The notes: a model not told the origin generated them from the sequence alone. DNA of 32,000 nt from Synechocystis sp. PCC 6803 substr. PCC-P (GCF_000284455.1 NC_017039.1:360001-392000); one strand, 5' to 3'. Shown: positions 5,077-26,719, numbered from the stretch's first letter. Translations and numbers: made by a program.

Positions 5077-5283
5077 ATGTACGCAATAGAGTTTGAAGCA
5101 GATCTACAAGATGGTGTTCTTACAATTCCAGATCATTACAAATCTCTGAAAAATCAGCATGTACGTGTAGTCATTATGCTAGATGGCCATGGTAATGAAT
5201 TGGAACTACGGGCCTTATCAGATCATTCAGCAACATTGATTGATGAATGGCATGATCCCTCCGAGGATGATGTATGGATCTGA
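5077..5283 (+). CDS. Putative type II antitoxin (small acidic-tailed protein upstream of a MazF/PemK-like toxin)
   Basis: 68-aa ORF whose stop overlaps the start of the downstream toxin-like ORF by 10 nt. Acidic C-terminus (DEWHDPSEDDVWI). Assignment is by context. Confidence 0.6.
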   Translation: MYAIEFEADLQDGVLTIPDHYKSLKNQHVRVVIMLDGHGNELELRALSDHSATLIDEWHDPSEDDVWI

Positions 5284-5621
5284 AGCAGGCAGAAGTCGTC
5301 CTATGCGAGTTCTATTTTTCTGACCTCAAGCAGAATAAACTAAGGCCCGTTGTTGTTTTTAAGGACAATTTGCCCTTCGATGATTTTGTTGGAATGCCGG
5401 TGAGTAGCAGGGTAGGTCAATTAAATGACGATGAAATCGTGTTGGATGAGTCGGATTTTATTGAGGGCCTTCTGTCCAAGTGCTCCAAAGTGATGGTGAG
5501 AAAAATATTCGTCATCTCAAAACAGGTTGTCATCAAAAAGCATGGTACGCTCTCTACCCAAAGCTTTAGTAAACTTCATCTGACTTTCTGTAGGTATTTT
5601 GGATGTGAAAACCAGTCTTGA
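5274..5621 (+). CDS. PemK/MazF-like type II toxin
   Basis: 115-aa ORF. The N-terminus AEVVLCEFYFSD....LRPVVVF..........GMPVSS resembles the MazF/PemK SH3-like fold signature. Paired with a small upstream ORF. Confidence 0.6.
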   Translation: MDLKQAEVVLCEFYFSDLKQNKLRPVVVFKDNLPFDDFVGMPVSSRVGQLNDDEIVLDESDFIEGLLSKCSKVMVRKIFVISKQVVIKKHGTLSTQSFSKLHLTFCRYFGCENQS

Positions 5622-12795: not shown

Positions 12796-13644
12796 TTGTA
12801 TAAAAATATCATGAAAACAACTATTAACGACTACATTGGTCAATTTATCAAAACAACTCCTGAATTTAAAGGTAAATGGAGAATTATTAGATATTGGATG
12901 AATCAAAATAAAGACCATAGAACCAAATATAGAATATTGCCAGGCGGCGAAAAAATCCTATGTGATTTGAGTATTCCTTACGAAGCTATGGTTTACTTAA
13001 AAAGAGAGGAGCAAAAAGACTTAGAATTACTCACTCAATTATTGAAGCCGTCAGATACTTTTGTTGATTGTGGTGCAAATATTGGTATTTGGTCTTTAGT
13101 TGCTGCTTCTAGAGTGAGTTATTCTGGCAAAGTATATGCTTTTGAACCCAATCCATCAACTTTTTAAAAATTATCGGACAATGTATCTTTATCAAGATTT
13201 AAGAATGATATTAATTTGATCTCCCAAGCCGTGGGCAATGAACAAAAAACAGTATTTTTTGAGTGCAATACTACTCATAATATTTCTTGTATTAAAGACA
13301 ATGCAACGCGAGATACACAAGAAGTTTTTTTAACCACAATAGATCAAGTTTTAGACGGAGCTATTGTTAACGGTATTAAAATAGATGTTGAAGGTTTTGA
13401 GCTTGAATGTTTGCAAGGAAGCTACAAGACCTTAATTAGATATCAACCCTGGTTATGTGTCGAATTCAATACTTTGTTAGCCAAAGTCAGCAAGTTGTCA
13501 GAATGGAACGTACATAATTATCTAAAAAAGTTAGGCTATAGATGTCGTCATTTTCACAATGCCCTTGACAAAAGTCAAGAAACTATTTTGTCTGACAATT
13601 GGGAAACGAAAGGCTATTGTAACTTGTTTTATTTCATTGAATAA
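12796..13644 (+). pseudogene. FkbM-family methyltransferase interrupted by a premature stop (two ORFs in the same frame)
   Basis: ORFs 12796-13167 (FVDCGANIGIWSL, AFEPNP) and 13216-13644 (IKIDVEGFELECLQG) are the two halves of one FkbM-type domain. Both starts are congruent mod 3. The likely true start is ATG 12811. Confidence 0.7.
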
Positions 13645-18992: not shown

Positions 18993-19939
18993 TAGTCACT
19001 TCAATTAACGATGAGAGAATTTAATGTAAAATTATGGGGTGTACAAAATGAACAGGTTTAAACAATGGCTTACAGTTTAGATTTAAGGCAAAGGGTAGTA
19101 GCTTATATAGAAGCTGGAGGAAAAATAACTGAGGCTTCCAAGATATATAAAATAGGAAAAGCCTCGATATACAGATGGTTAAATAGAGTAGATTTAAGCC
19201 CAACAAAAGTAGAGCGTCGCCATAGGAAATTAGACTGGGAAGCTCTAAAAAAAGACGTAGAAGAAAATCCCGATGCAAGATTGATAGACAGAGCCAAGAA
19301 ATTTGGAGTGAGGCCGAGTGCCGTATATTACGCATTAAAGAAAATGAAAATAAACAGAAAAAAAAAAGAACTACGTTATCGAGAAAGAAACCGGGAGGAA
19401 CGAGTTAAGTACTATAGAATGTTAAGAGAACTAATCAAGCTCTATGGTAGTCAAGCTATAGTTTACATAGATGAATCTGGATTCGAAGCAATCCAGGCTT
19501 GTATTTATGCCTGGTCAAAAAAAGGAAAAAAAGTTTATGGAGATAGACAAGGAAAAAGGGGAGTCAGAGAAAATCTAGTAGCAGGGAGAAGAAAAGGAAA
19601 AAAAGATTTGATTGCACCGATGGTTTTTACTGGGAGTTTGAATGCAGAAGGCTTTGAAGGATGGTTAAAATTATATTTACTACCCTCCCTCGACATTCCA
19701 TCAATATTAATAATGGATAATGCTCCTATTCATCGTAAAACTGCCATTAAAGAATTGGCTAAAGAAGCAGGTCATGAAGTTCTTTTTTTGCCGAAATATT
19801 CTCCTGATTTAAATGATATTGAGCATGACTTTAGTGCCTTGAAACGAGCTAGAATGTACGCTCCTATTGACACGTCTCTTGATGAAATTATCCGTTCTTA
19901 CTGTGGCGTTTAGCGTCTCAGCCTTATTTGAAACTACTA
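18993..19939 (+). mobile_element. IS630/Tc1-mariner-family insertion sequence (ISY100-like), 947 bp, with TA target-site duplication
   Basis: TA at 18991-18992 and at 19940-19941. Imperfect terminal inverted repeats: TAGTCACTTCAATTAACG versus the reverse complement TAGTAGTTTCAAATAAGG (13/18 match). One 282-aa transposase ORF fills the element. Confidence 0.9.
19065..19913 (+). CDS. IS630-family (DDE) transposase
   Basis: 282-aa ORF. N-terminal HTH-like region (GKASIYRWLNR), then VYIDESGF and ILIMDNAPIHRK....LFLPKYSPDLNDIEH (DDE/D motif context). Confidence 0.95.
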   Translation: MAYSLDLRQRVVAYIEAGGKITEASKIYKIGKASIYRWLNRVDLSPTKVERRHRKLDWEALKKDVEENPDARLIDRAKKFGVRPSAVYYALKKMKINRKKKELRYRERNREERVKYYRMLRELIKLYGSQAIVYIDESGFEAIQACIYAWSKKGKKVYGDRQGKRGVRENLVAGRRKGKKDLIAPMVFTGSLNAEGFEGWLKLYLLPSLDIPSILIMDNAPIHRKTAIKELAKEAGHEVLFLPKYSPDLNDIEHDFSALKRARMYAPIDTSLDEIIRSYCGV

Positions 19940-21176: not shown

Positions 21177-22337
21177 ATGAGAATTTCACACATAATTGCA
21201 GACTTGGCCCCTGAAGCAGGGGGGCCATCCATAACTGTTACCAATTTGACTGATGCCCTTTCCCACCAGAACTTCACCGAAGTTACTCTTTTGAGCCAAT
21301 GCTTAACAGATAGCTCAGTTGTTGCTCCTGCTCCAAACTCTAAAGTTAATCGAATCATTGTAAACAGCTCTCACAGAATTGCCCTATCCCTAGGATTGCC
21401 ATTAAATAACCTACTCCGCTCCCGTTTAAGCTCTTACCCGTCCGACATTATCCATGGCCATGGCCTGTGGCATCCGATTAGCTATTGGAGGAGTCAAACT
21501 GCCAAGCAATATAACATTCCCCTAGTTATCCATCCTAGAGGCATGCTCGAACCCTGGGCCCTCAACTACCGTAAATTCAAAAAACGGATTGCCCTATGGC
21601 TCTATCAAAATCGTGATCTACAACGGGCTCAAATACTGTTTGCCACAGCCAACCAGGAAGCCCAGAGTCTTCGTCATTTTGGTCTGCGTCAGCCTATAGC
21701 TATTACTCCCAACGGCATTCTTTTCCCCACGCTAGAATCTCAAGCATCTCCTCCGGAATCATCACGCCACCGAACAGCTCTATTCCTCAGTCGCATTCAT
21801 CCCAAAAAGGGATTAATGAACCTAATCCAAGCCTGGCATCAAGTTTCCCCCCCAGACTGGCAACTACTCATTGCTGGCCCCAACGAAAATAATCACCGTG
21901 CTGAAGTTCAAGCCCAAATCAAACAACACCAATTAGAGCAAACGATCAAAATCCTTGACTCTGTGGAGGGAGAAGCCAAAGCCAACCTTTACCGTCAGGC
22001 TGATCTGTTTATTCTGCCCACCTTTAGTGAAAACTTTGGCGTCGTAGTTGCCGAAGCCCTTTCCTATGGCATTCCCGTCATCACCACCACTGGGACTCCC
22101 TGGCAAGATCTCCAAACTTACCGTTGTGGTTGGTGGGTAGAACCGACAGTTGCGACTATTGCCGATGCTCTCCAGCAAGCAACAATTCTACATCCCCAGG
22201 AATTACGAACTATGGGGGAAAGAGGTAGAGCATACGTCAAATGCTACGACTGGAATGCCATCGCCCAGGACACCCTTGCCGTTTACCGCTGGATTCTGAA
22301 TCAGGGACCAAAACCTGACTGCGTTATCTTGGACTAG
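21177..22337 (+). CDS. Glycosyltransferase family 4 (GT-B)
   Basis: 386-aa ORF with LFLSRIHPKKGL and LPTFSENFGVVVAEALSYGIPVITTTGTPWQDL. Confidence 0.85.
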   Translation: MRISHIIADLAPEAGGPSITVTNLTDALSHQNFTEVTLLSQCLTDSSVVAPAPNSKVNRIIVNSSHRIALSLGLPLNNLLRSRLSSYPSDIIHGHGLWHPISYWRSQTAKQYNIPLVIHPRGMLEPWALNYRKFKKRIALWLYQNRDLQRAQILFATANQEAQSLRHFGLRQPIAITPNGILFPTLESQASPPESSRHRTALFLSRIHPKKGLMNLIQAWHQVSPPDWQLLIAGPNENNHRAEVQAQIKQHQLEQTIKILDSVEGEAKANLYRQADLFILPTFSENFGVVVAEALSYGIPVITTTGTPWQDLQTYRCGWWVEPTVATIADALQQATILHPQELRTMGERGRAYVKCYDWNAIAQDTLAVYRWILNQGPKPDCVILD

Positions 22338-22341
22338 AGCC

Positions 22342-22395
22342 ATGGCAAGTTTTCTAGCTTTACTGCCCCGCTCCCTGACGACGTTTCCCTTATGA
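22342..22395 (+). repeat. Head block copy 1: 17-codon leader ORF MASFLALLPRSLTTFPL*, truncated by the hicBA cargo
   Basis: Codons 1-15 encode the same peptide as copies at 23300, 24277 and 24980, differing only by synonymous changes. The stop TGA overlaps the hicB ATG (TTATGA). Confidence 0.8.
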
Positions 22396-22646
22396 AAAAA
22401 GTAACCATGACAGTCACTCCCAAGCAAATTTATAACTATACTGTTCTTCTAGAAAAAGAGCTTGATGGCGGTTATCACGCCTTTTGCCCAATGCTCAAAG
22501 GATGCCATTCCCAAGGAGACACCTTTGAAGAAGCCATACAAAACATTACAGAGGCTATTGAACTATACATTGAAAGCTTGATAGCCGAACATCAGCCCGT
22601 TCCTAAGGAAGATTTAATTGTCAAACCATTGAGTATTTTGGTGTGA
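22392..22646 (+). CDS. hicB: HicB-family antitoxin
   Basis: 84-aa ORF with GGYHAFCPMLKGCHSQGDTFEEAIQNITEAIELYIESL, a typical HicB N-terminal domain. GTGA overlap with hicA. An alternative start is ATG 22407. Confidence 0.85.
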   Translation: MKKVTMTVTPKQIYNYTVLLEKELDGGYHAFCPMLKGCHSQGDTFEEAIQNITEAIELYIESLIAEHQPVPKEDLIVKPLSILV

Positions 22647-22873
22647 GCAATCTTCCAAGCGTCCAAGCCAAAGATTTTATTCGAGTAATCAAAAAGCTCG
22701 GATTTTTTCTGGAGCGCCAGAAAGGGAGCCATGCCATTTATAAAAATACCCAGGGTAATCGAGTTGTGGTTCCCATCCATCCCGGAAAAGATTTAAAGCA
22801 GGGGACACTGATGGGCATGATTAAAGATATTGGACTTGAAAAAGAAAAATTTTTTGACTTACTACAAAAATAG
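22643..22873 (+). CDS. hicA: HicA-family mRNA-interferase toxin
   Basis: 76-aa ORF with KDFIRVIKKLGFFLERQKGSHAIYKN.....VVVPIHPGKDLKQGTLMGMIKDIGL, a typical HicA. Confidence 0.85.
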   Translation: MSNLPSVQAKDFIRVIKKLGFFLERQKGSHAIYKNTQGNRVVVPIHPGKDLKQGTLMGMIKDIGLEKEKFFDLLQK

Positions 22874-22884
22874 TAATTTGTGTG

Positions 22885-22935
22885 ATCGCTCATTTGCTTA
22901 GCTTCCTCCAGGAGTACGGTGAATAAATAGGCGAT
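22885..22935 (+). repeat. Tail block copy 1 (...LLSFLQEYGE* plus ATAGGCGATC), orphaned downstream of hicA
   Basis: Aligns with the 3-prime ends of ORFs 23300-23794 and 24980-25390. The last 9 codons are identical in amino-acid sequence and differ only at synonymous sites. Confidence 0.75.
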
Positions 22936-23266
22936 CAACGTCAACGACGTGGCCCAGGCCCACGTTCTCGGATTAACTTACCTTTTGCAGGGGGGAGCTA
23001 CCAACATCTTTAACCTCGGTAATGGCAATGGCTTCTCTGTGCGGGAAATGATTGCAACAGCCCAGTTAGTCACCAATCGCCCCATTCCCGTGCTACAAGG
23101 CGATCGCCGTCCGGGAGACCCCCCGATTTTAGTGGGCAGCAGTGAAAAAGCTCGGCAAATCCTCGGTTGGCAACCCCAATATCCCCTGGCAAAAGATATT
23201 CTGACCCATGCCTGGGCTTGGCACCAACAACGCCATGGCGATAATTCCCCATGCACACAACCGTAG
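22936..23266 (+). pseudogene. 3-prime third of a second UDP-glucose 4-epimerase gene (galE stump)
   Basis: It reads (I)NVNDVAQAHVLGLTYLLQGGATNIFNLGNGNGFSVREMI...GDPPILVGSSEKARQILGWQPQY, collinear with residues ~225-330 of the intact GalE at 11487-12509. No N-terminal Rossmann part. The left junction abuts tail block 1. Confidence 0.8.
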
Positions 23267-23287
23267 CAATGGCGATCGCCAGTTAGC

Positions 23288-23299
23288 TAAACTGTAACC
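23288..23299 (+). promoter_or_regulatory. Candidate -10 box TAAACT placed 6 nt before the unit ATG (possible leaderless transcript)
   Basis: The same geometry recurs at 24265-24276 (TAAACT) and 24968-24979 (TAAAAT). No Shine-Dalgarno sequence precedes these ATGs. Motif-and-spacing argument only. Confidence 0.3.
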
Positions 23300-23794
23300 A
23301 TGGCAAGTTTTCTGGCTTTACTGCCCCGTTCATTGACCACTTTCCTTTATGCCGTTGCGGCCCTACTGAGGTTTTATGGCAACATCGACACCACCCCCAT
23401 CCCCCGAATCCCCCTCACCATCTTTGGATGGAGCTTCCTGGCGTTCACGTTGGGCACAGCGGCTCTCCTGGTTAATCTCGGCCTTGAGTGGAACACTGGA
23501 AATCGAAGCCGAAACCGAGAGATTGAAACAAGAGAACGCGAAACTCGACGAGATAATCTTGCAGACGAAGAAAGAAACCGAGCGTCTGAGGAAAGAGAAA
23601 AAGCCGATCGAGAAAGAGATCGAGCAGATCAAGAAAGAAACCGAGCAGATCAGGAAAGAAAACGAGCGGCTAGCCGTGCTCGAATCCAAAATCGAGGATT
23701 TGTTCTCCAAACACGGTATCAACTTGCCCCTAGCCCAGAAGCCAGAGCAACCCTAATCGATTTCCTTAGCTTTCTCCAGGAATACGGCGAATAA
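23300..23794 (+). CDS. Intact unit 2: small membrane protein with hydrophobic N-terminus, one clear TM helix and a charged heptad-repeat tail (unknown family)
   Basis: 164-aa ORF. TM segment IPLTIFGWSFLAFTLGTAALLVNLGL, then R/D/E/Q-rich 7-aa repeats, ending LIDFLSFLQEYGE. Paralog at 24980-25390. The N- and C-terminal codons differ from the paralog only synonymously. Confidence 0.6.
   Translation: MASFLALLPRSLTTFLYAVAALLRFYGNIDTTPIPRIPLTIFGWSFLAFTLGTAALLVNLGLEWNTGNRSRNREIETRERETRRDNLADEERNRASEEREKADRERDRADQERNRADQERKRAASRARIQNRGFVLQTRYQLAPSPEARATLIDFLSFLQEYGE
23376..23756 (+). other. Alternative +1-frame ORF inside unit 2 encoding a heptad coiled coil (candidate overprinted gene or frameshift product)
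   Basis: 126 codons: ...EIEAETERLKQENAKLDEIILQTKKETERLRKEKKPIEKEIEQIKKETEQIRKENERLAVLESKIEDLFSKHGINLPLAQKPEQP*. ATG and stop are conserved in the paralog (25056-25352). Several paralog differences are synonymous in this frame but not in the annotated frame. Confidence 0.35.
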
Positions 23795-23816
23795 ACGGCG
23801 AGCTTGATAATCTTGA

Positions 23817-24053
23817 ATGAAATTTACCCAATATTTTTTAGCTACCAGACAAAGACCAGATCGGTTAATTATTCACTTGGAGTGGATAGAATACACTATG
23901 AACAATCCTCTCAAGGAAGAAATTCAAACAGACGGTAGAATCAAATTATGGGCTTCCATCCCGGAAATGGAAGGTAGATATCTGCGTGTAGTTTTATTGT
24001 CAGATCGAGAAACTGTCCATAATGCATTTTTTGACCGCTCCTTCAAACCATGA
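23817..24053 (+). CDS. Small TA-like protein (DUF4258-like; family name from memory, moderate certainty)
   Basis: 78-aa ORF with RPDRLIIHLEWIEYTMNNP....DGRIKLWASIPEMEGRYLRVVLLSDRETVHNAFFDRSF. ATGA overlap with the downstream DUF2283-like ORF. Confidence 0.55.
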   Translation: MKFTQYFLATRQRPDRLIIHLEWIEYTMNNPLKEEIQTDGRIKLWASIPEMEGRYLRVVLLSDRETVHNAFFDRSFKP

Positions 24054-24247
24054 AGATTAAGTACTTTACTGATACAGATACCCTTTATATTGAATTTCAG
24101 TCTGCCAATATTGTCGAAACCAGGGATTTGGACGATAACACTTTAATTGACATTGACATGCACGGAAATGTCTGTGCCATAACCATTGAACACGCTCAAC
24201 AAAGAACCAATATTCCTAACATCTCGTTCGAGCAGATTGTGGCATAG
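24050..24247 (+). CDS. DUF2283-like small protein (putative partner of the upstream ORF)
   Basis: 65-aa ORF with MKIKYFTDTDTLYIEFQSANIVETRDLDDNTLIDIDMHGNVCAITIEHA, the typical DUF2283 pattern. Confidence 0.6.
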   Translation: MKIKYFTDTDTLYIEFQSANIVETRDLDDNTLIDIDMHGNVCAITIEHAQQRTNIPNISFEQIVA

Positions 24248-24276
24248 GGCGATCGCCGGTTAGCTAAACTAAGACT

Positions 24277-24336
24277 ATGGCAAGTTTTCTGGCCCTACTG
24301 CCCCGGTCCTTGACCACTTTCCTTTATAGCGAATAA
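24277..24336 (+). repeat. Collapsed unit 3: head block fused directly to the last 9 nt of the tail block (19-codon ORF MASFLALLPRSLTTFLYSE*)
   Basis: 17 head codons, then AGCGAATAA (compare GGCGAATAA at 23786-23794). Preceded by GCGATCGCC-GGTTAGCTAAACT as in unit 2. The Uma2 ATG follows 6 nt after the stop. Confidence 0.75.
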
Positions 24337-24342
24337 TTCCCC

Positions 24343-24975
24343 ATGACCCTCACCGTTGCCATTCCCCGCATTGAGATCGCCCCTGGTAGTCATTTAACTA
24401 TCCCCAATGTATCCTGGGTAGACTTTATCTCTTTGCTAAAAGAACTCGGAGAAAAACGTCATTCCCGACTCGCTTACTATCAAGGCCGACTGGAAATCAT
24501 GGCTCCCCTGGCCCTACATGAAAAACCAAATCGTCTGATTACCGATATCGTCAAAGCTATTTTGGAATGCCAAGAGCGCGACTGGGAAGACTTTGGCTCC
24601 ACCACCCTTAAACAGCCTCCCTTCGCTGGCATAGAACCAGATAGCTGTTTTTACATCCAAAATGCATCCCAGATGCGGGAATACAAAAACCTTGATCTGA
24701 ATCAATCTCCCCCCCCAGATTTAGCAATTGAATGCAATTTAAGCTCCAAAACCGTCATCGATGCGTACCAAGCCATTGGCGTTCCTGAAGTGTGGATTTA
24801 TAGCAACAATCAACTACAAATTTACCTTTATTCAGAACAAGGTTATTTAGAAAGCAACCAAAGTCAAGTTTTTCCAGATTTGGCCGTAATGTCAATGATT
24901 CCCCAACTAATTCAAAAAGCTTACCAAGTTGGCACAAGGCAAATGTTGGGTGAGTTGAAGGCACAGCTAAAATGA
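24343..24975 (+). CDS. Uma2-family (DUF820, PD-(D/E)xK-fold) putative endonuclease
   Basis: 210-aa ORF with YYQGRLEIMAPLALHEKPNRLITDIV, EPDSCFYI, PDLAIECNLSS and YQAIGVPEVWIY. Confidence 0.8.
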   Translation: MTLTVAIPRIEIAPGSHLTIPNVSWVDFISLLKELGEKRHSRLAYYQGRLEIMAPLALHEKPNRLITDIVKAILECQERDWEDFGSTTLKQPPFAGIEPDSCFYIQNASQMREYKNLDLNQSPPPDLAIECNLSSKTVIDAYQAIGVPEVWIYSNNQLQIYLYSEQGYLESNQSQVFPDLAVMSMIPQLIQKAYQVGTRQMLGELKAQLK

Positions 24976-24979
24976 ACCT

Positions 24980-25390
24980 ATGGCAAGTTTTCTAGCCTTA
25001 CTGCCCCGCTCCCTGACCACTTTCCTTTATGCTGTGGCGGCCCTACTGAGATTTTATGGCAACATCGACACCACCCCCTTCCAACTCATCCCCCTCACCA
25101 TCCTCGACTGGAGTTTCCTGGCGTTCACGTTGGGCACAGCGGCTCTCCTGGTTAATCTCGGCCTTGAGTGGAACTCTGGAAATCGAAGCCGAAACCGAGC
25201 AGATCAGGAAAGAGACAGAACAGATCAAGAAAGAGACCGAGCAGATCAGGAAAGACAACGAGCGGCTCGCCGTGCTCGAATCCAAAATCGATTCTTCCTT
25301 CGACCAACACGGTATCAACTTACCCCTAGCCCAGACACCAGAGCAGCCCTAATCGATTTCCTCAGTTTCCTCCAGGAATACGGGGAATAA
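24980..25390 (+). CDS. Intact unit 4: paralog of 23300-23794 (membrane protein with a shorter heptad-repeat tail)
   Basis: 136-aa ORF with the same N-terminus, TM helix and LIDFLSFLQEYGE end. Exactly 84 nt (four 21-nt repeats) shorter than unit 2. Confidence 0.6.
   Translation: MASFLALLPRSLTTFLYAVAALLRFYGNIDTTPFQLIPLTILDWSFLAFTLGTAALLVNLGLEWNSGNRSRNRADQERDRTDQERDRADQERQRAARRARIQNRFFLRPTRYQLTPSPDTRAALIDFLSFLQEYGE
25056..25352 (+). other. Alternative +1-frame ORF inside unit 4 (coiled-coil reading), paralog of 23376-23756
   Basis: 98 codons: ...EIEAETEQIRKETEQIKKETEQIRKDNERLAVLESKIDSSFDQHGINLPLAQTPEQP*. Three near-perfect 21-nt repeats at about 25200-25262. Confidence 0.35.
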
Positions 25391-25466
25391 ATAGGCGATC
25401 GCCCAACCCTTTCCCAACATACTCATTGTTAAGATTGACTAGTCCCCCGTTGCCTGTGAAATAACC

Positions 25467-26012
25467 ATGGTTACCCTGCTGAAATGGACAGTTCCAGACT
25501 ATCACCACCTCATTGAACAGGGGCTATTGGACGGTAAGAAAGTGGAACTTTTAGACGGAGACCTAGTGACCATGGCTCCCGAAGGACCACTCCATAGCTA
25601 CACCACCACCACCGTTGCCGACTATCTGCGCCAAAACCTGCACGGATTAGCTCTAGTGAGGGAAGCCCATCCCATTACCCTGAGTCAATCTGAACCGGAA
25701 CCTGACATTGCCATTGTTCTAGCTCCCCAGGAGCGCTACAAAGAAAGGCATCCTCAGGCCGACGATATTTTTTGGTTAATTGAAATAGCTAACAGTACCC
25801 AAGCCTACGACCTCAACGACAAAAAACAAATCTACGCTCAAGAAGGCATCCCCGAATATTGGGTGGCAGACCTAAGCAAACGCCAATTATTTATTTTTCG
25901 AGCACCAGACAAAGAAGATTATCGCCTGCAACAAACCCACTCCGAAGGTATCATCCGTAGCCAAGCCTTTCCCGAAATAAAAATATCAGTACAAGAAATG
26001 TTCCATTGGTAG
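25467..26012 (+). CDS. Uma2-family (DUF820) putative endonuclease
   Basis: 181-aa ORF with VELLDGDLVTMAPEGPLHSYTTTTV, EPEPDIAIV, WLIEIANST and YAQEGIPEYWVADL. Confidence 0.85.
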   Translation: MVTLLKWTVPDYHHLIEQGLLDGKKVELLDGDLVTMAPEGPLHSYTTTTVADYLRQNLHGLALVREAHPITLSQSEPEPDIAIVLAPQERYKERHPQADDIFWLIEIANSTQAYDLNDKKQIYAQEGIPEYWVADLSKRQLFIFRAPDKEDYRLQQTHSEGIIRSQAFPEIKISVQEMFHW

Positions 26013-26027
26013 CTCTCCGACCATTGG

Positions 26028-26058
26028 CCAAACTGAAACCATGGCAAGTTTTCTGGCC
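26028..26058 (+). repeat. Head block copy 5 (fragment): CCAAACTGAAACC-ATGGCAAGTTTTCTGGCC, marking the right edge of the array
   Basis: Matches the first ~18 nt of the unit ORF plus 13 nt upstream. Homology then ends (short ORF MASFLAVFLLLCFW*). Confidence 0.65.
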
Positions 26059-26176
26059 GTATTCTTGCTCCTTTGTTTTTGGTAACCAACTGAGCGACCG
26101 CAGCATTCTCCCAAATTCTAAATAAATTCCGTTGTTTTTGCTGTCGAACCAGTTAATTTTGGCGTAAATTATTACC

Positions 26177-26719
26177 ATGCAACTTAATCAATACCAGCAA
26201 GGAGAATATCACCCTGGAGCCCCGCTGTTTAAACAATTGCTATGGTATTCCATTGGGGATTTTTTAGTCCAAACGCCCCTACTGCCCATGGCCAGGCTGA
26301 AGGTAGCTATCCTGCGATTATTCGGGGCCAAAATTGGTACAGGAGTTAATATCAAACCCCACGTCAAGATCAAATTCCCTTGGCGGCTAACCCTGGGCAA
26401 TTACGTTTGGCTGGGGGAAAAATGTTGGATTGATAACCTCGCCCCGGTTACCATTGAGTCCCATGTGTGTATTTCCCAGGGCGTTTACCTATGCACTGGC
26501 AACCACGATTGGAGTAAACCCAGCTTTGACCTAATCACCAGTCCGATTCACATCGCCGCTGGCAGTTGGATCGGTGCTAGCGCCGTTATTGGACCTGGAG
26601 TACGGGTGAATGAAAAGGCAGTTTTGACTTTGGGGTCTGTGGCTGTCAAAGATTTGGCGGCTATGACCATCTACTCTGGCAATCCCTGTCAGCCGGTCAA
26701 AAAACGGCAACTCCTCTGA
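26177..26719 (+). CDS. WcaF-like hexapeptide-repeat (LbH) polysaccharide O-acetyltransferase
   Basis: 180-aa ORF with LWYSIGDFLVQTPLLPMARLKVAILRLFGAKIGTGVNIKP...GNYVWLGEKCWIDNLAPVTIESHVCISQGVYLCTGNHDW. Confidence 0.85.
   Translation: MQLNQYQQGEYHPGAPLFKQLLWYSIGDFLVQTPLLPMARLKVAILRLFGAKIGTGVNIKPHVKIKFPWRLTLGNYVWLGEKCWIDNLAPVTIESHVCISQGVYLCTGNHDWSKPSFDLITSPIHIAAGSWIGASAVIGPGVRVNEKAVLTLGSVAVKDLAAMTIYSGNPCQPVKKRQLL

Follow-up and report, generated by a model that had tools for sequence, protein, structure and literature searches.

The recurring blocks of a toxin-antitoxin and nuclease gene array in Synechocystis sp. PCC 6803 are the ends of slr1079-family gene copies

What are the short blocks that recur along 3.7 kb of a polysaccharide gene cluster in Synechocystis sp. 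PCC 6803, and how did the small genes between them come to lie there? The original prediction, made from a 32,000-nt stretch of this genome (the window), described five head blocks and three tail blocks with different cargo in every slot. Inspection of the window bears this out: the head ATGGCAAGTTTTCTRGC gives five exact matches, all on the + strand, where 0.03 are expected (ATGs at 22342, 23300, 24277, 24980 and 26041), and the tail CTCCAGGARTACGGNGAATAA gives three where 0.00 are expected, with ends at 22926, 23794 and 25390. Both sets lie where they were predicted, with a chance expectation of about zero, and a repeat search recovered identical block families, including the predicted upstream block in copies 2-5. 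Pfam and NCBIfam likewise identify the two flanks that had been named, a GT4 glycosyltransferase (HpsP-like; 21177-22337) and a WcaF-family EPS acetyltransferase (26177-26719; NF007797, 5e-71). All features described below are on the + strand.

Rather than ends of an element, the blocks are the promoter plus 5' end (head) and the 3' end (tail) of the slr1079/slr1082/slr0489 gene family. The head comprises a -10 box at -12 to -7, an ATG that is probably leaderless and the opening ~17 codons of a frame termed L, and the tail comprises the final ~13 codons and the stop, after which a HIP1 palindrome follows in many copies. Unit 2 is slr1079 (23300-23794, 164 aa, 100% identical) and unit 4 is slr1082 (24980-25390, 136 aa), the only two intact ORFs, as had been predicted. 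Units 1, 3 and 5 are relics of family copies, and the array is one of five copies, two intact and three broken. "Head" and "tail" frame the family gene and not the cargo, which lies either between one tail and the next head or in place of a copy's body.

Conservation across the family bears on the same point. More than 375 homologues retain the N- and C-terminal protein sequence encoded by head and tail. The L-frame homology of units 2 and 4 comprises a hydrophobic N-terminus, 7-aa charged repeats and a C-terminal ...DFLSFLQEYGE, and L lengths in the family differ by 7-aa steps. The relics match the L HMM only at positions 1-15 (unit 1), 1-18 (unit 3) or about the first 6-8 codons (unit 5). 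A second ORF, S, in the +1 frame is kept in 35 of 35 full-length copies (33 loci), beginning at nt +76 in 26 of them and at +49, +79, +82 or +172 in the others; it is present from codon 26 of L in units 2 and 4 and absent from the three relics. A TAnnnT hexamer precedes 47 of 78 family heads, versus 5.9% in the control; its last base lies at -7 in 46 of them and at -8 in the remaining one, and units 2, 3 and 4 carry it at -12 to -7. Transcription start sites (TSSs) are known from the literature for slr1079 and slr0489, and the slr1079 mRNA is leaderless (PMC4195498). A 2025-26 preprint by Hadjeras et al. (bioRxiv 10.64898/2025.12.20.695498) describes slr0489, slr1079 and slr1082 as "gene-in-gene" loci encoding a membrane protein L and an out-of-frame protein S. 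Both are translated and co-immunoprecipitate for Slr0489 and Slr1079, and Slr0489L alone slows growth and is rescued by S, with toxicity and rescue reported for slr0489 only. PCC 6714 is stated there to have no family member.

Reading the array from left to right, a putative -10 box, TATCTT (22325-22330), and the published hicBA TSS (22338) precede the unit 1 head relic (22342-22395; nhmmer head model 23-106), a mini-ORF encoding MASFLALLPRSLTTFPL and a stop. Family homology ceases at ~22387, and the TGA of the mini-ORF overlaps the hicB ATG (ATGA). As predicted, hicBA lies between the unit 1 head and tail: hicB (ssr1765; 22392-22646; Pfam HicB_lk_antitox, 5e-12) takes the place of the unit body and overlaps hicA (ssr1766; 22643-22873; Pfam HicA_toxin, 2e-21) by 4 nt (22643-22646), as a type II toxin-antitoxin bicistron. 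The unit 1 tail relic (stop 22924-22926; nhmmer tail model 166-223) and its degenerate HIP1 spacer ATAGGCGATCAAC occupy 22892-22937 and are orthologous to those of a 129-aa copy (X129) in S. salina by junction comparison. A galE 3' stump (22934-23266; Pfam epimerase C-terminal match 22949-23266) follows, as had been claimed; a ~690-nt deletion runs from the post-tail spacer into this gene, which is intact (335 aa) at the same position in S. salina LEGE 06099. A 30-nt fragment at 23241-23270, which resembles the start of the Uma2a gene (77% to 24333-24362), is another recombination scar.

Unit 2 is preceded by a HIP1 site, GGCGATCGCC (23271-23280), and the slr1079 -10 box TAAACT (23288-23293). 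Its L frame, assigned by family alignment, has the hydrophobic N-terminal region, charged repeats and conserved C-terminus, and nests the 126-aa coiled-coil S frame (23376-23756). The cargo beyond it (23817-24247) is a 78-aa ORF (23817-24053) overlapping a DUF2283 gene (ssr1768; 24050-24247; Pfam, 6e-17) by ATGA, a putative toxin-antitoxin pair. The prediction of a DUF4258/DUF2283-like pair holds for DUF2283 but not for DUF4258: the 78-aa partner matched no Pfam family, nor DUF4258 even at E<=10. The unit 3 relic (24248-24336) consists of HIP1 (24248-24257), -10 box TAAACT (24265-24270) and head (24277-24327; nhmmer head model); its mini-ORF ends at 24336, and its junction with the Uma2a leader falls in the microhomology CCTTT(A/T)T. 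The 9 nt there that were taken for the end of a tail, AGCGAATAA, are probably not tail. The homologue in sister strain CACIAM 05, AGCAAATAA, lies 95 nt downstream of a full copy and is Uma2a leader, and the 97%-identical alignment of the two strains begins at window position 24321, within CCTTTAT.

The two Uma2 nucleases predicted in the spacers are confirmed by Pfam. Uma2a (210 aa; 24343-24975; 7e-18) extends by its final codons into the unit 4 -10 box, TAAAAT (24968-24973). Unit 4 (24968-25403) carries its L frame together with an S frame at 25056-25352, and ends in HIP1 (25394-25403). Uma2b (181 aa; 25467-26012; 2e-35) is kept at its position in all five Synechocystis loci compared. The unit 5 stump (26021-26085; nhmmer head model) retains only about 18-23 nt of head, with a degenerate -10 box, CAAACT; its positional orthologue in S. 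salina and PCC 7339 is ~47 nt long. The WcaF-family acetyltransferase gene of Picosynechococcus has a family copy directly adjoining or overlapping it.

All cargo genes (hicBA, the 78-aa/DUF2283 pair and the two Uma2) are expressed. The preprint supplement lists the HicB peptide VTMTVTPK, seven peptides for HicA and twelve for Uma2a, and both the 78-aa and DUF2283 proteins were found by mass spectrometry. The TSS reported for ssr1766/ssr1765, 382338 F, 54 nt before hicB (PMC4963859, Table 1), corresponds to window position 22338, 4 nt upstream of the unit 1 head ATG, with the offset of 360000 (NC_000911 360001-392000 being the window) taken from that supplement. Among PADLOC phage-defence candidates, Uma2a matches PDC-S17 (1e-35) and Uma2b matches PDC-S03 (4e-18). 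L, HicAB, DUF2283, the 78-aa ORF and DUF29 match no PADLOC model, and S gives weak coiled-coil-type matches alone (E>=0.0015).

Comparison with other genomes indicates how the locus varies. Four further Synechocystis genomes carry the syntenic locus, with a common WcaF/GT4/phytase-like right flank, one to at least three full copies and differing cargo (DUF29, intact galE, MNT-HepT). The order is X181-Uma2b in PCC 7339, X-Uma2a-X136-Uma2b in CACIAM 05 and X143-DUF29-X129-galE-X178-MNT-HepT-Uma2b in S. salina LEGE 06099, X denoting a family copy, and in Picosynechococcus PCC 7003 X-X stands directly before the acetyltransferase. Homology between 6803 and S. salina stops 16 nt past the slr1079 stop, and the cargo differs beyond. 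The unit 3 head and upstream block are orthologous to the X129 head and the unit 1 tail and spacer to the X129 tail, and therefore the copies have recombined. Methyltransferase 3' fragments of differing length precede copies at three further loci (L030, L032, L033), which indicates segmental duplication. Other cyanobacteria also have head and tail blocks, and arrays in which DUF29 or Uma2 separates the copies occur even in distant ones (L005, L007, L011, L036-38, L048). Within 300 nt of a family copy, Uma2 and DUF29 are over-represented, with odds ratios of 7.5 and 13.7 computed from loci that are partly orthologous and not independent. Slots differ between Synechocystis genomes; the array is 100% identical in all sequenced 6803 substrains examined (five aligned; ~19 complete genomes on record). 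Because the blocks recur and the slots differ between genomes, the array is neither a private, invariant feature of one locus nor the ends of a catalogued IS/MITE family, the two outcomes that the original prediction had named against itself.

"Recombination-driven cassette hotspot" is accordingly a fair description, blocks recurring and slots varying, although no direct event was observed among the 6803 substrain assemblies, which are identical across the array. The suggestion of a new small modular mobile unit is not supported: the blocks are the ends of a protein-coding, dual-frame gene family already described in the preprint. As ends of five family-gene copies with lodged cargo, they mark the locus as a patch of recombination that varies between strains, not as a new kind of mobile element. 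The repeat search found no inverted-repeat relation between head and tail or at the junctions, where the sole palindrome is the 8-10-nt HIP1. No target-site duplications were seen at the array junctions, and Rfam has no match in the array. We rejected an IS or MITE, the blocks being direct repeats that code in two frames and are conserved as protein, with no target-site duplications. The predicted lack of an integrase also holds, with none among the 25 listed of the 39 Pfam families matched by 24 other window ORFs, and only an IS630 DDE transposase, at 19065-19913.

A very unlikely reading is a site-specific cassette system, integron-like or a new mobile unit, with head and tail as recombination sites of a dedicated enzyme, possibly a homing-endonuclease-like Uma2. 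Consistent with it, four apparently independent head relics (units 1 and 3, one in Leptolyngbya, L004, and the S. salina/PCC 7339 stump) break within 6 nt, at +46 to +51, a clustering that random microhomology deletion does not predict. Differing cargo also begins at one point, 16 nt past the stop of the slr1079 orthologue, in two species, and among neighbours outside the family Uma2 is the most frequent, with 16 cases downstream and 14 upstream for 123 elements. However, further relics break elsewhere, at +133 to +150 (L062, L063, L067), the neighbouring Uma2 fall into at least eight subfamilies unrelated to one another, and Uma2 is absent beside many copies. Head and tail encode protein in two frames, with conservation of the amino-acid sequence, and lack inverted-repeat or attC-like symmetry; the 25 Pfam families listed, of 39 matched, include no integrase, and plasmids, phages and viral contigs yielded no family copy.

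Two further readings see a function in the array. That L/S, Uma2, DUF29, MNT-HepT and HicAB form one co-operating anti-phage system, kept together for joint function, seems improbable. The enrichment of Uma2 and DUF29 (at partly orthologous loci), the PADLOC matches of both Uma2, the recurrence of a methyltransferase-X-Uma2-MNT-HepT order in several metagenome contigs and Snowella, and the comparison of L/S with defence-associated toxin-antitoxin pairs in the preprint all favour it. Yet the partners are not fixed and their Uma2 subfamilies differ, many copies are singletons among housekeeping genes (PGK, MurJ, AcrB, argininosuccinate synthase), PCC 7003 has X-X without such partners, and three of the five copies here are dead. 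We consider it highly improbable that the family belongs to the polysaccharide pathway, for example as a membrane ruler or regulator whose coiled coil varies in length and which works with the WcaF-like acetyltransferase, its copies producing surface-structure variation. Copies are often located in glycosyltransferase clusters, immediately ahead of the acetyltransferase gene or overlapping it in Picosynechococcus, L005 and L045, and protein length steps by 7 aa would suit a ruler, but singletons occur in unrelated contexts, relics are tolerated at the locus, and the preprint reports both the absence of the family from PCC 6714 and the toxicity of L alone, neutralized by S, for Slr0489.

We favour, as the probable explanation, a decaying tandem array of a selfish slr1079-family gene with lodged cargo, reshuffled without a dedicated recombinase. 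Each copy would encode two overlapping-frame proteins, a membrane L that inhibits growth alone and a coiled-coil S that binds and neutralizes it, a unit comprising the -10 box, leaderless ATG, L/S body, stop and, in many copies, HIP1. Tandem or segmental duplication may have produced co-oriented copies between the GT4 and WcaF-like genes of the polysaccharide island, where small toxin-antitoxin or defence-type genes (hicBA, the 78-aa/DUF2283 pair, two Uma2) would have lodged after tails or inside copies, as DUF29 and MNT-HepT would have done in other strains. Homologous exchange between direct repeats would add and remove slots, probably aided by natural transformation and by HIP1, a Chi-like booster of both transformation and recombination (bioRxiv 10.1101/2024.09.10.611283), and short-microhomology deletions would leave relics and the galE stump. 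The outcome would be a toxin-antitoxin/defence islet in whose making no dedicated recombinase takes part. Head relics with a -10 box and start site could serve downstream cargo as promoter and leader mini-ORF; this is backed by the mapped TSS for hicBA, and we infer it for Uma2a. Such promoter capture is not valid for every relic, since no -10 box survives in the stump that precedes the WcaF gene. A bolder and rather unlikely extension is that the family unit acts in naturally competent cyanobacteria as a recombinase-free gene-capture scaffold, building an integron-like array by homologous and microhomology recombination alone. Repeated copies would then be portable homology arms with ready-made leaderless promoters, HIP1 at unit borders a Chi-like or uptake signal, and a fragile point at +46 to +51 of the gene a repeated joining site for foreign small genes.

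Among known systems the closest kin is the L/S family of the preprint (bioRxiv 10.64898/2025.12.20.695498), of whose three founding members units 2 and 4 are two, with the same nested +1-frame S ORF and, probably, the leaderless start and toxin/antidote-like behaviour. In the text and supplement parts that were searched, slr0489, slr1079 and slr1082 are treated as three separate genes, and there is no mention of the three relics, the array with interleaved cargo, differences in the locus from strain to strain, the -10/HIP1 unit structure seen across the family or the Uma2/DUF29 association. Sedentary chromosomal integrons resemble the array in their co-oriented small genes, many of them toxin-antitoxin, a recurring separator and strain-variable content. 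In contrast, the slr1079 array has no IntI tyrosine recombinase (among the 25 listed of 39 Pfam families) and no attC hairpins or attC-like inverted repeats, and we rejected an integron; the recurring sequence here is itself a gene, complete or broken, that brings its own promoter, and exchange appears homology-based rather than site-specific. Orphan cdiA-CT/cdiI and rhs arrays share tandem conserved gene-end fragments with differing downstream modules, reshuffled by homologous recombination between conserved pieces. A CDI/Rhs orphan-module array was rejected, since each head mini-ORF (ends at 22395, 24336 and 26085) either stops short of the cargo or is out of frame with it; the cargo is therefore not fused in frame to the head and consists of autonomous toxin-antitoxin and nuclease genes instead of alternative tips of one large protein. 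The "minimal mobile elements" of naturally competent Neisseria, reportedly described by Saunders and Snyder in 2002, are alike in that alternative cassettes at a fixed chromosomal slot have no machinery of their own and replace one another through transformation and flanking homology. A stabilizing role of toxin-antitoxin loci has also been proposed for the very 40-kb glycosyltransferase island considered here (Kopfmann et al. 2016; PMC4963859). What sets the slr1079 array apart from minimal mobile elements and toxin-antitoxin islets is that homology comes from selfish-gene copies inside the slot as well as from core genes, and that relics also appear to donate promoters.

Inspection of the window recovers the recurring blocks named in the original prediction, with the 17-nt head core present on the + strand at 22342, 23300, 24277, 24980 and 26041 (expected 0.03) and the 21-nt tail core ending at 22926, 23794 and 25390 (expected 0.00). 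A repeat search of the window also found these families, along with the upstream block seen in copies 2-5 and 21-nt internal repeats, and an Rfam search of the blocks gave no credible RNA or riboswitch. Pfam and NCBIfam assignments also agree with the predicted gene content (hicB, hicA, a galE stump, DUF2283 and two Uma2 genes), with the left-hand GT4 gene and right-hand WcaF-family acetyltransferase gene as flanks, and with IS630 at 19065-19913. The 78-aa ORF, which had been called DUF4258-like, is without any DUF4258 signal. The locus had further been considered a possible new kind of small modular mobile unit. Because the N- and C-termini are conserved as protein in the family alignment, head and tail are instead the ends of a real gene and not non-coding. 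The proposed upstream part of the head is real in copies 2-5, but it is the -10 box of this gene, since units 2-4 and many family heads carry a hexamer there.

What is repeated here belongs to a gene family known from earlier work, the L/S family, in which a membrane protein (L) is encoded together with a nested, out-of-frame protein (S). Unit 2 is slr1079 at 100% identity and unit 4 is slr1082, both intact; the preprint supplement places ssr1765 at 382392-382646 and slr1082 at 384980-385390 of NC_000911, so the window corresponds to positions 360001-392000 of Synechocystis sp. PCC 6803. This preprint (Hadjeras et al., bioRxiv 10.64898/2025.12.20.695498) describes an internal out-of-frame ORF for S in each of slr0489, slr1079 and slr1082, peptides of both L and S for Slr0489 and Slr1079 and of S only for Slr1082, co-immunoprecipitation of L and S for Slr0489 and Slr1079, and growth retardation by Slr0489L without S, a behavior its authors term toxin-antitoxin-like. 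Its supplement also lists peptides for all four cargo proteins searched (HicA, the 78-aa ORF, DUF2283 and Uma2a) and for HicB.

The family comprises more than 375 database members from Synechocystis, Picosynechococcus, Leptolyngbya, Snowella and other cyanobacteria. Alignment of 33 members reveals an N-terminus conserved as protein (MxSFLALLPRxLTTFLYAVAALLRFY...), a middle of 7-aa charged repeats that vary in number, and a conserved C-terminus (...DFLSFLQEYGE). An S ORF in the +1 frame was found in 35/35 full-length copies (33 loci, several cyanobacterial genera). Its start is nt +76 in 26 copies and +49, +79, +82 or +172 in the others; in the window, these ORFs occupy 23376-23756 (unit 2) and 25056-25352 (unit 4). 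Length variation proceeds in 21-nt (7-codon) steps that preserve both overlapping frames, so that heptads of the QIRKETE type in S are the counterpart of ADQERNR in L.

Family heads also share a promoter signature. The slr1079 mRNA is leaderless (PMC4195498), and TAAACT or TAAAAT lies exactly at -12..-7 in units 2, 3 and 4. Across the family, a TAnnnT hexamer is present in 47/78 heads (last base at -7 in 46 of them, at -8 in the other), compared with 5.9% at random positions. A sigma-70 consensus scan was uninformative, with 3 matches versus 4.8 expected; the -10-only leaderless signature was scored separately. The hicBA transcription start at 382338 (window 22338) is 4 nt 5' of the head-1 ATG (PMC4963859). 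Relics that retain the -10 box and ATG could act as promoter and leader for cargo.

Units 1, 3 and 5 are relics of the family gene. In unit 1 (22342-22926), the head extends to ~+46 and is followed by hicBA and then ~35 nt of tail; read as a mini-ORF, the head has 17 codons and stops at a TGA that overlaps the ATG of hicB. The unit 1 tail and following spacer ATAGGCGATCAAC are orthologous to the tail and spacer of X129 (X denotes a family copy, here with an L of 129 aa), the copy that precedes galE in S. salina LEGE 06099, where galE is intact. The galE stump of PCC 6803 results from a ~690-nt deletion reaching from the spacer after the unit 1 tail into galE. A HIP1-to-HIP1 deletion was considered and rejected; the junction has only a few bases of microhomology. 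A 30-nt scar after the stump is similar to the Uma2a start (repeat family D8). Past unit 2 (ATG at 23300), homology between PCC 6803 and S. salina stops 16 nt beyond the slr1079 stop, and the slot that follows holds the 78-aa/DUF2283 pair in PCC 6803, MNT-HepT in S. salina and nothing in PCC 7339.

In unit 3 (ATG at 24277), HIP1 and the -10 box precede a head that reaches +51, where it meets the Uma2a leader at the microhomology CCTTT(A/T)T. The 9 nt of tail originally assigned to it more likely belong to this leader, which CACIAM 05 carries at the same site 95 nt beyond a full copy. The unit 3 upstream block and head share 91% identity with those of S. salina X129, and the orthologue of the X129 tail sits in unit 1, indicating that copies have recombined. 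The last codons of Uma2a extend into the -10 box of unit 4 (ATG at 24980). Between Uma2b and the acetyltransferase gene lies unit 5 (26041), a stump whose -10 box is degenerate or lost; it is present in 5/5 Synechocystis loci, measuring ~47 nt in S. salina and PCC 7339 and ~18-23 nt in PCC 6803 and CACIAM 05. Directly after its 18-nt head, GGCCGTATTCTTG at 26048-26067 matches the tail core CAGGAATACGGCG in reverse complement (20 nt, 80% complementarity); this may be a coincidence or a piece of tail in inverted orientation.

To compare genomes, the syntenic site was defined by the common right flank, from the WcaF-like gene through GT4 and the phytase-like gene onward, and both family copy number and cargo vary there. 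The order is GT4, X181, Uma2b and stump in PCC 7339; X, Uma2a, X136, Uma2b and stump in CACIAM 05; and X143, DUF29, X129, galE, X178, MNT, HepT, Uma2b and stump in S. salina LEGE 06099. Picosynechococcus PCC 7003 carries DUF218, X143 and an X150 overlapping the acetyltransferase gene, and its cluster holds two further copies at other positions. Three copies fall inside 1 kb in L036-L038, and another locus (L048) reads X-Uma2-X-MNT-HepT next to housekeeping genes. Metagenome contigs gave no match to the exact head DNA pattern and were searched with a protein pattern in its place. Loci in two uncultured cyanobacteria (L007, 4032-10432; L011, 6848-9699) interleave X regularly with DUF29 and one Uma2, in the order X-DUF29-DUF29-DUF29-X-DUF29-DUF29-Uma2-DUF29-X, and represent a second, cleaner interleaved type. 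In Leptolyngbya sp. DLM2.Bin15 (L004, 4626-9940), four Uma2 paralogues of different subfamilies stand in a row upstream of a copy, which is followed by a head relic and the putative start of another Uma2 gene at the contig end.

Among 123 elements, downstream neighbors include X (21), Uma2 (16), DUF29 (10), acetyltransferase (9), MT (1) and GT4 (7), and upstream neighbors X (19), Uma2 (14), DUF29 (8), acetyltransferase (0), MT (9) and GT4 (7); the remainder are assorted housekeeping genes. Relative to genes >=2.5 kb away, those <=300 nt from a copy are enriched with odds ratios of 7.5 for Uma2 and 13.7 for DUF29. The adjoining Uma2 genes belong to at least 8 subfamilies, and Uma2a and Uma2b both match PADLOC defense-candidate models.

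Several features bear on how such arrays arise. All copies point the same way and thus form direct repeats, related genomes differ in how many copies they hold and in what fills the slots, and orthologous head and tail pieces are now split between units. Methyltransferase gene 3' fragments of varied lengths sit before copies and therefore point to segmental duplication. As originally noted, there is no integrase or recombinase at the array, judged from the Pfam families listed for the other window ORFs (25 of 39 matched), and the window repeat and family searches likewise revealed no inverted repeats or duplications there; the relic and galE junctions show short microhomologies only. We infer that tandem or segmental duplication builds the arrays, that homologous exchange between copies leads to slot gain and loss, and that illegitimate joins produce the relics. 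Such exchange could occur within a genome or, since Synechocystis and Picosynechococcus are naturally competent, after natural transformation. The simplest reading of the build-up of toxin-antitoxin (TA) and defense genes is a site tolerant of insertions combined with addiction-type modules that are not easily lost; the 40-kb island has been proposed to be stabilized by toxin-antitoxin loci (Kopfmann et al., PMC4963859).

A more novel reading, in which the family unit is a recombinase-free gene-capture scaffold, appears unlikely and keeps its standing mainly through the clustering of breakpoints. Four head relics, apparently independent, end within 6 nt of one another at +46..+51 (unit 1, unit 3, L004 and the S. 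salina/PCC 7339 stump). Another three relics, from metagenomes, break off at +133..+150. The clustering could possibly stem from a recombination-prone T-rich stretch TTTCCTTTAT, from selection against longer toxic L fragments without S, or from the site preference of some enzyme. In the mechanism inferred above, HIP1 may aid exchange between copies, and it is frequent just past the stop and just ahead of the -10 box. Exact HIP1 lies <=25 nt past the stop in 21/90 tails (expected 0.011 per such window), and among 49 copies it lies <=40 nt upstream in 9/49 and <=35 nt downstream in 14/49, against a background of 1.6%, although these counts include homologous copies and hence are not independent. 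HIP1 was rejected as an exact unit boundary for this reason and because the clade that has HIP1 at either end carries a HIP1-rich repeat throughout the intergenic region. Its presence at unit borders is treated as a lead only, since intergenic DNA of some genomes is HIP1-rich anyway. HIP1 is reported to stimulate transformation and recombination in a Chi-like manner (bioRxiv 10.1101/2024.09.10.611283). In Merismopediaceae-like contigs (L010, L050, L059-L061, L074), the intergenic DNA around copies is made up of a recurring HIP1-bounded repeat, GCGATCGC-GATTAATTGATAGTTGATAATGAATAGTTGATAATTATCCATTG...-GCGATCGC, which resembles a distinct family of short interspersed repeats.

Mobile origins were also considered. 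A phage or viral origin was rejected, with no relative among IMG/VR contigs or INPHARED phages, as was a plasmid origin, where the sole PLSDB match is a hicB gene on a Gloeothece plasmid. S. salina LEGE 06155 (L031) appears to carry X inserted into a methyltransferase gene, with complementary halves (aa 1-107 and 109-211); N-gaps and single-N joins fall exactly at the junctions, and because this scaffold is unreliable it was not used as evidence of transposition.

Within PCC 6803, the array is 100% identical in 5 aligned assemblies and gene order is the same in the ~19 complete genomes on record. In some 35 short-read Logan contigs (L078, L080-L084), Uma2a and the initial ~140 nt of slr1082 lead directly into the slr0489 body and on into its downstream genes GGACT and menE, 2.2 Mb distant. 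Substrain rearrangement was rejected given the reference order in all complete genomes on record. Because slr0489 is leaderless, the joins are most simply read as probable RNA-seq or short-read assembly chimeras via the common ~140-nt 5' end; if so, this identical stretch implies recent gene conversion between the distant slr1082 and slr0489 copies. Separately, the Kazusa reference BA000022.2 lacks 102 nt of the WcaF-like gene (26396-26512) present in the window and other substrains, giving a protein of 146 aa instead of 180 aa, and the deletion is flanked by 15-nt direct repeats.

Elsewhere in the island, a PemK/MazF-type toxin gene at 5274-5621 (slr1062, PMC4963859) lies amid a long glycosyltransferase operon as a further toxin-antitoxin module, and a single FkbM-type methyltransferase domain is divided into an N-terminal and a C-terminal part between adjacent ORFs at 12796-13167 and 13216-13644, which looks like a split or frameshifted gene.

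Taken together, an apparently exotic modular element becomes a concrete, testable picture. A dual-coding toxin/antidote gene, itself a recent discovery, would multiply in tandem within a polysaccharide island gained by horizontal transfer, its copies would decay to promoter-bearing stumps, and the repeats would let TA and nuclease genes be gained, lost and expressed. Beyond the three genes of the preprint, the analysis adds three previously unrecognized relics in the model strain, retention of the nested S frame in every full-length homologue examined, a leaderless promoter signature across the family and a strong tie to the enigmatic Uma2 and DUF29 families. The literature searched gave no account of an array with relics, promoter donation to cargo, slot variation between strains or the Uma2/DUF29 association. 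The array thereby offers a natural system to test the role of HIP1 and short repeats in cassette exchange during natural transformation. The whole locus behaves like a toxin-antitoxin-rich cassette array or 'minimal mobile element' slot, and it lacks the defining features of integrons, IS/MITEs and CDI/Rhs orphan arrays.
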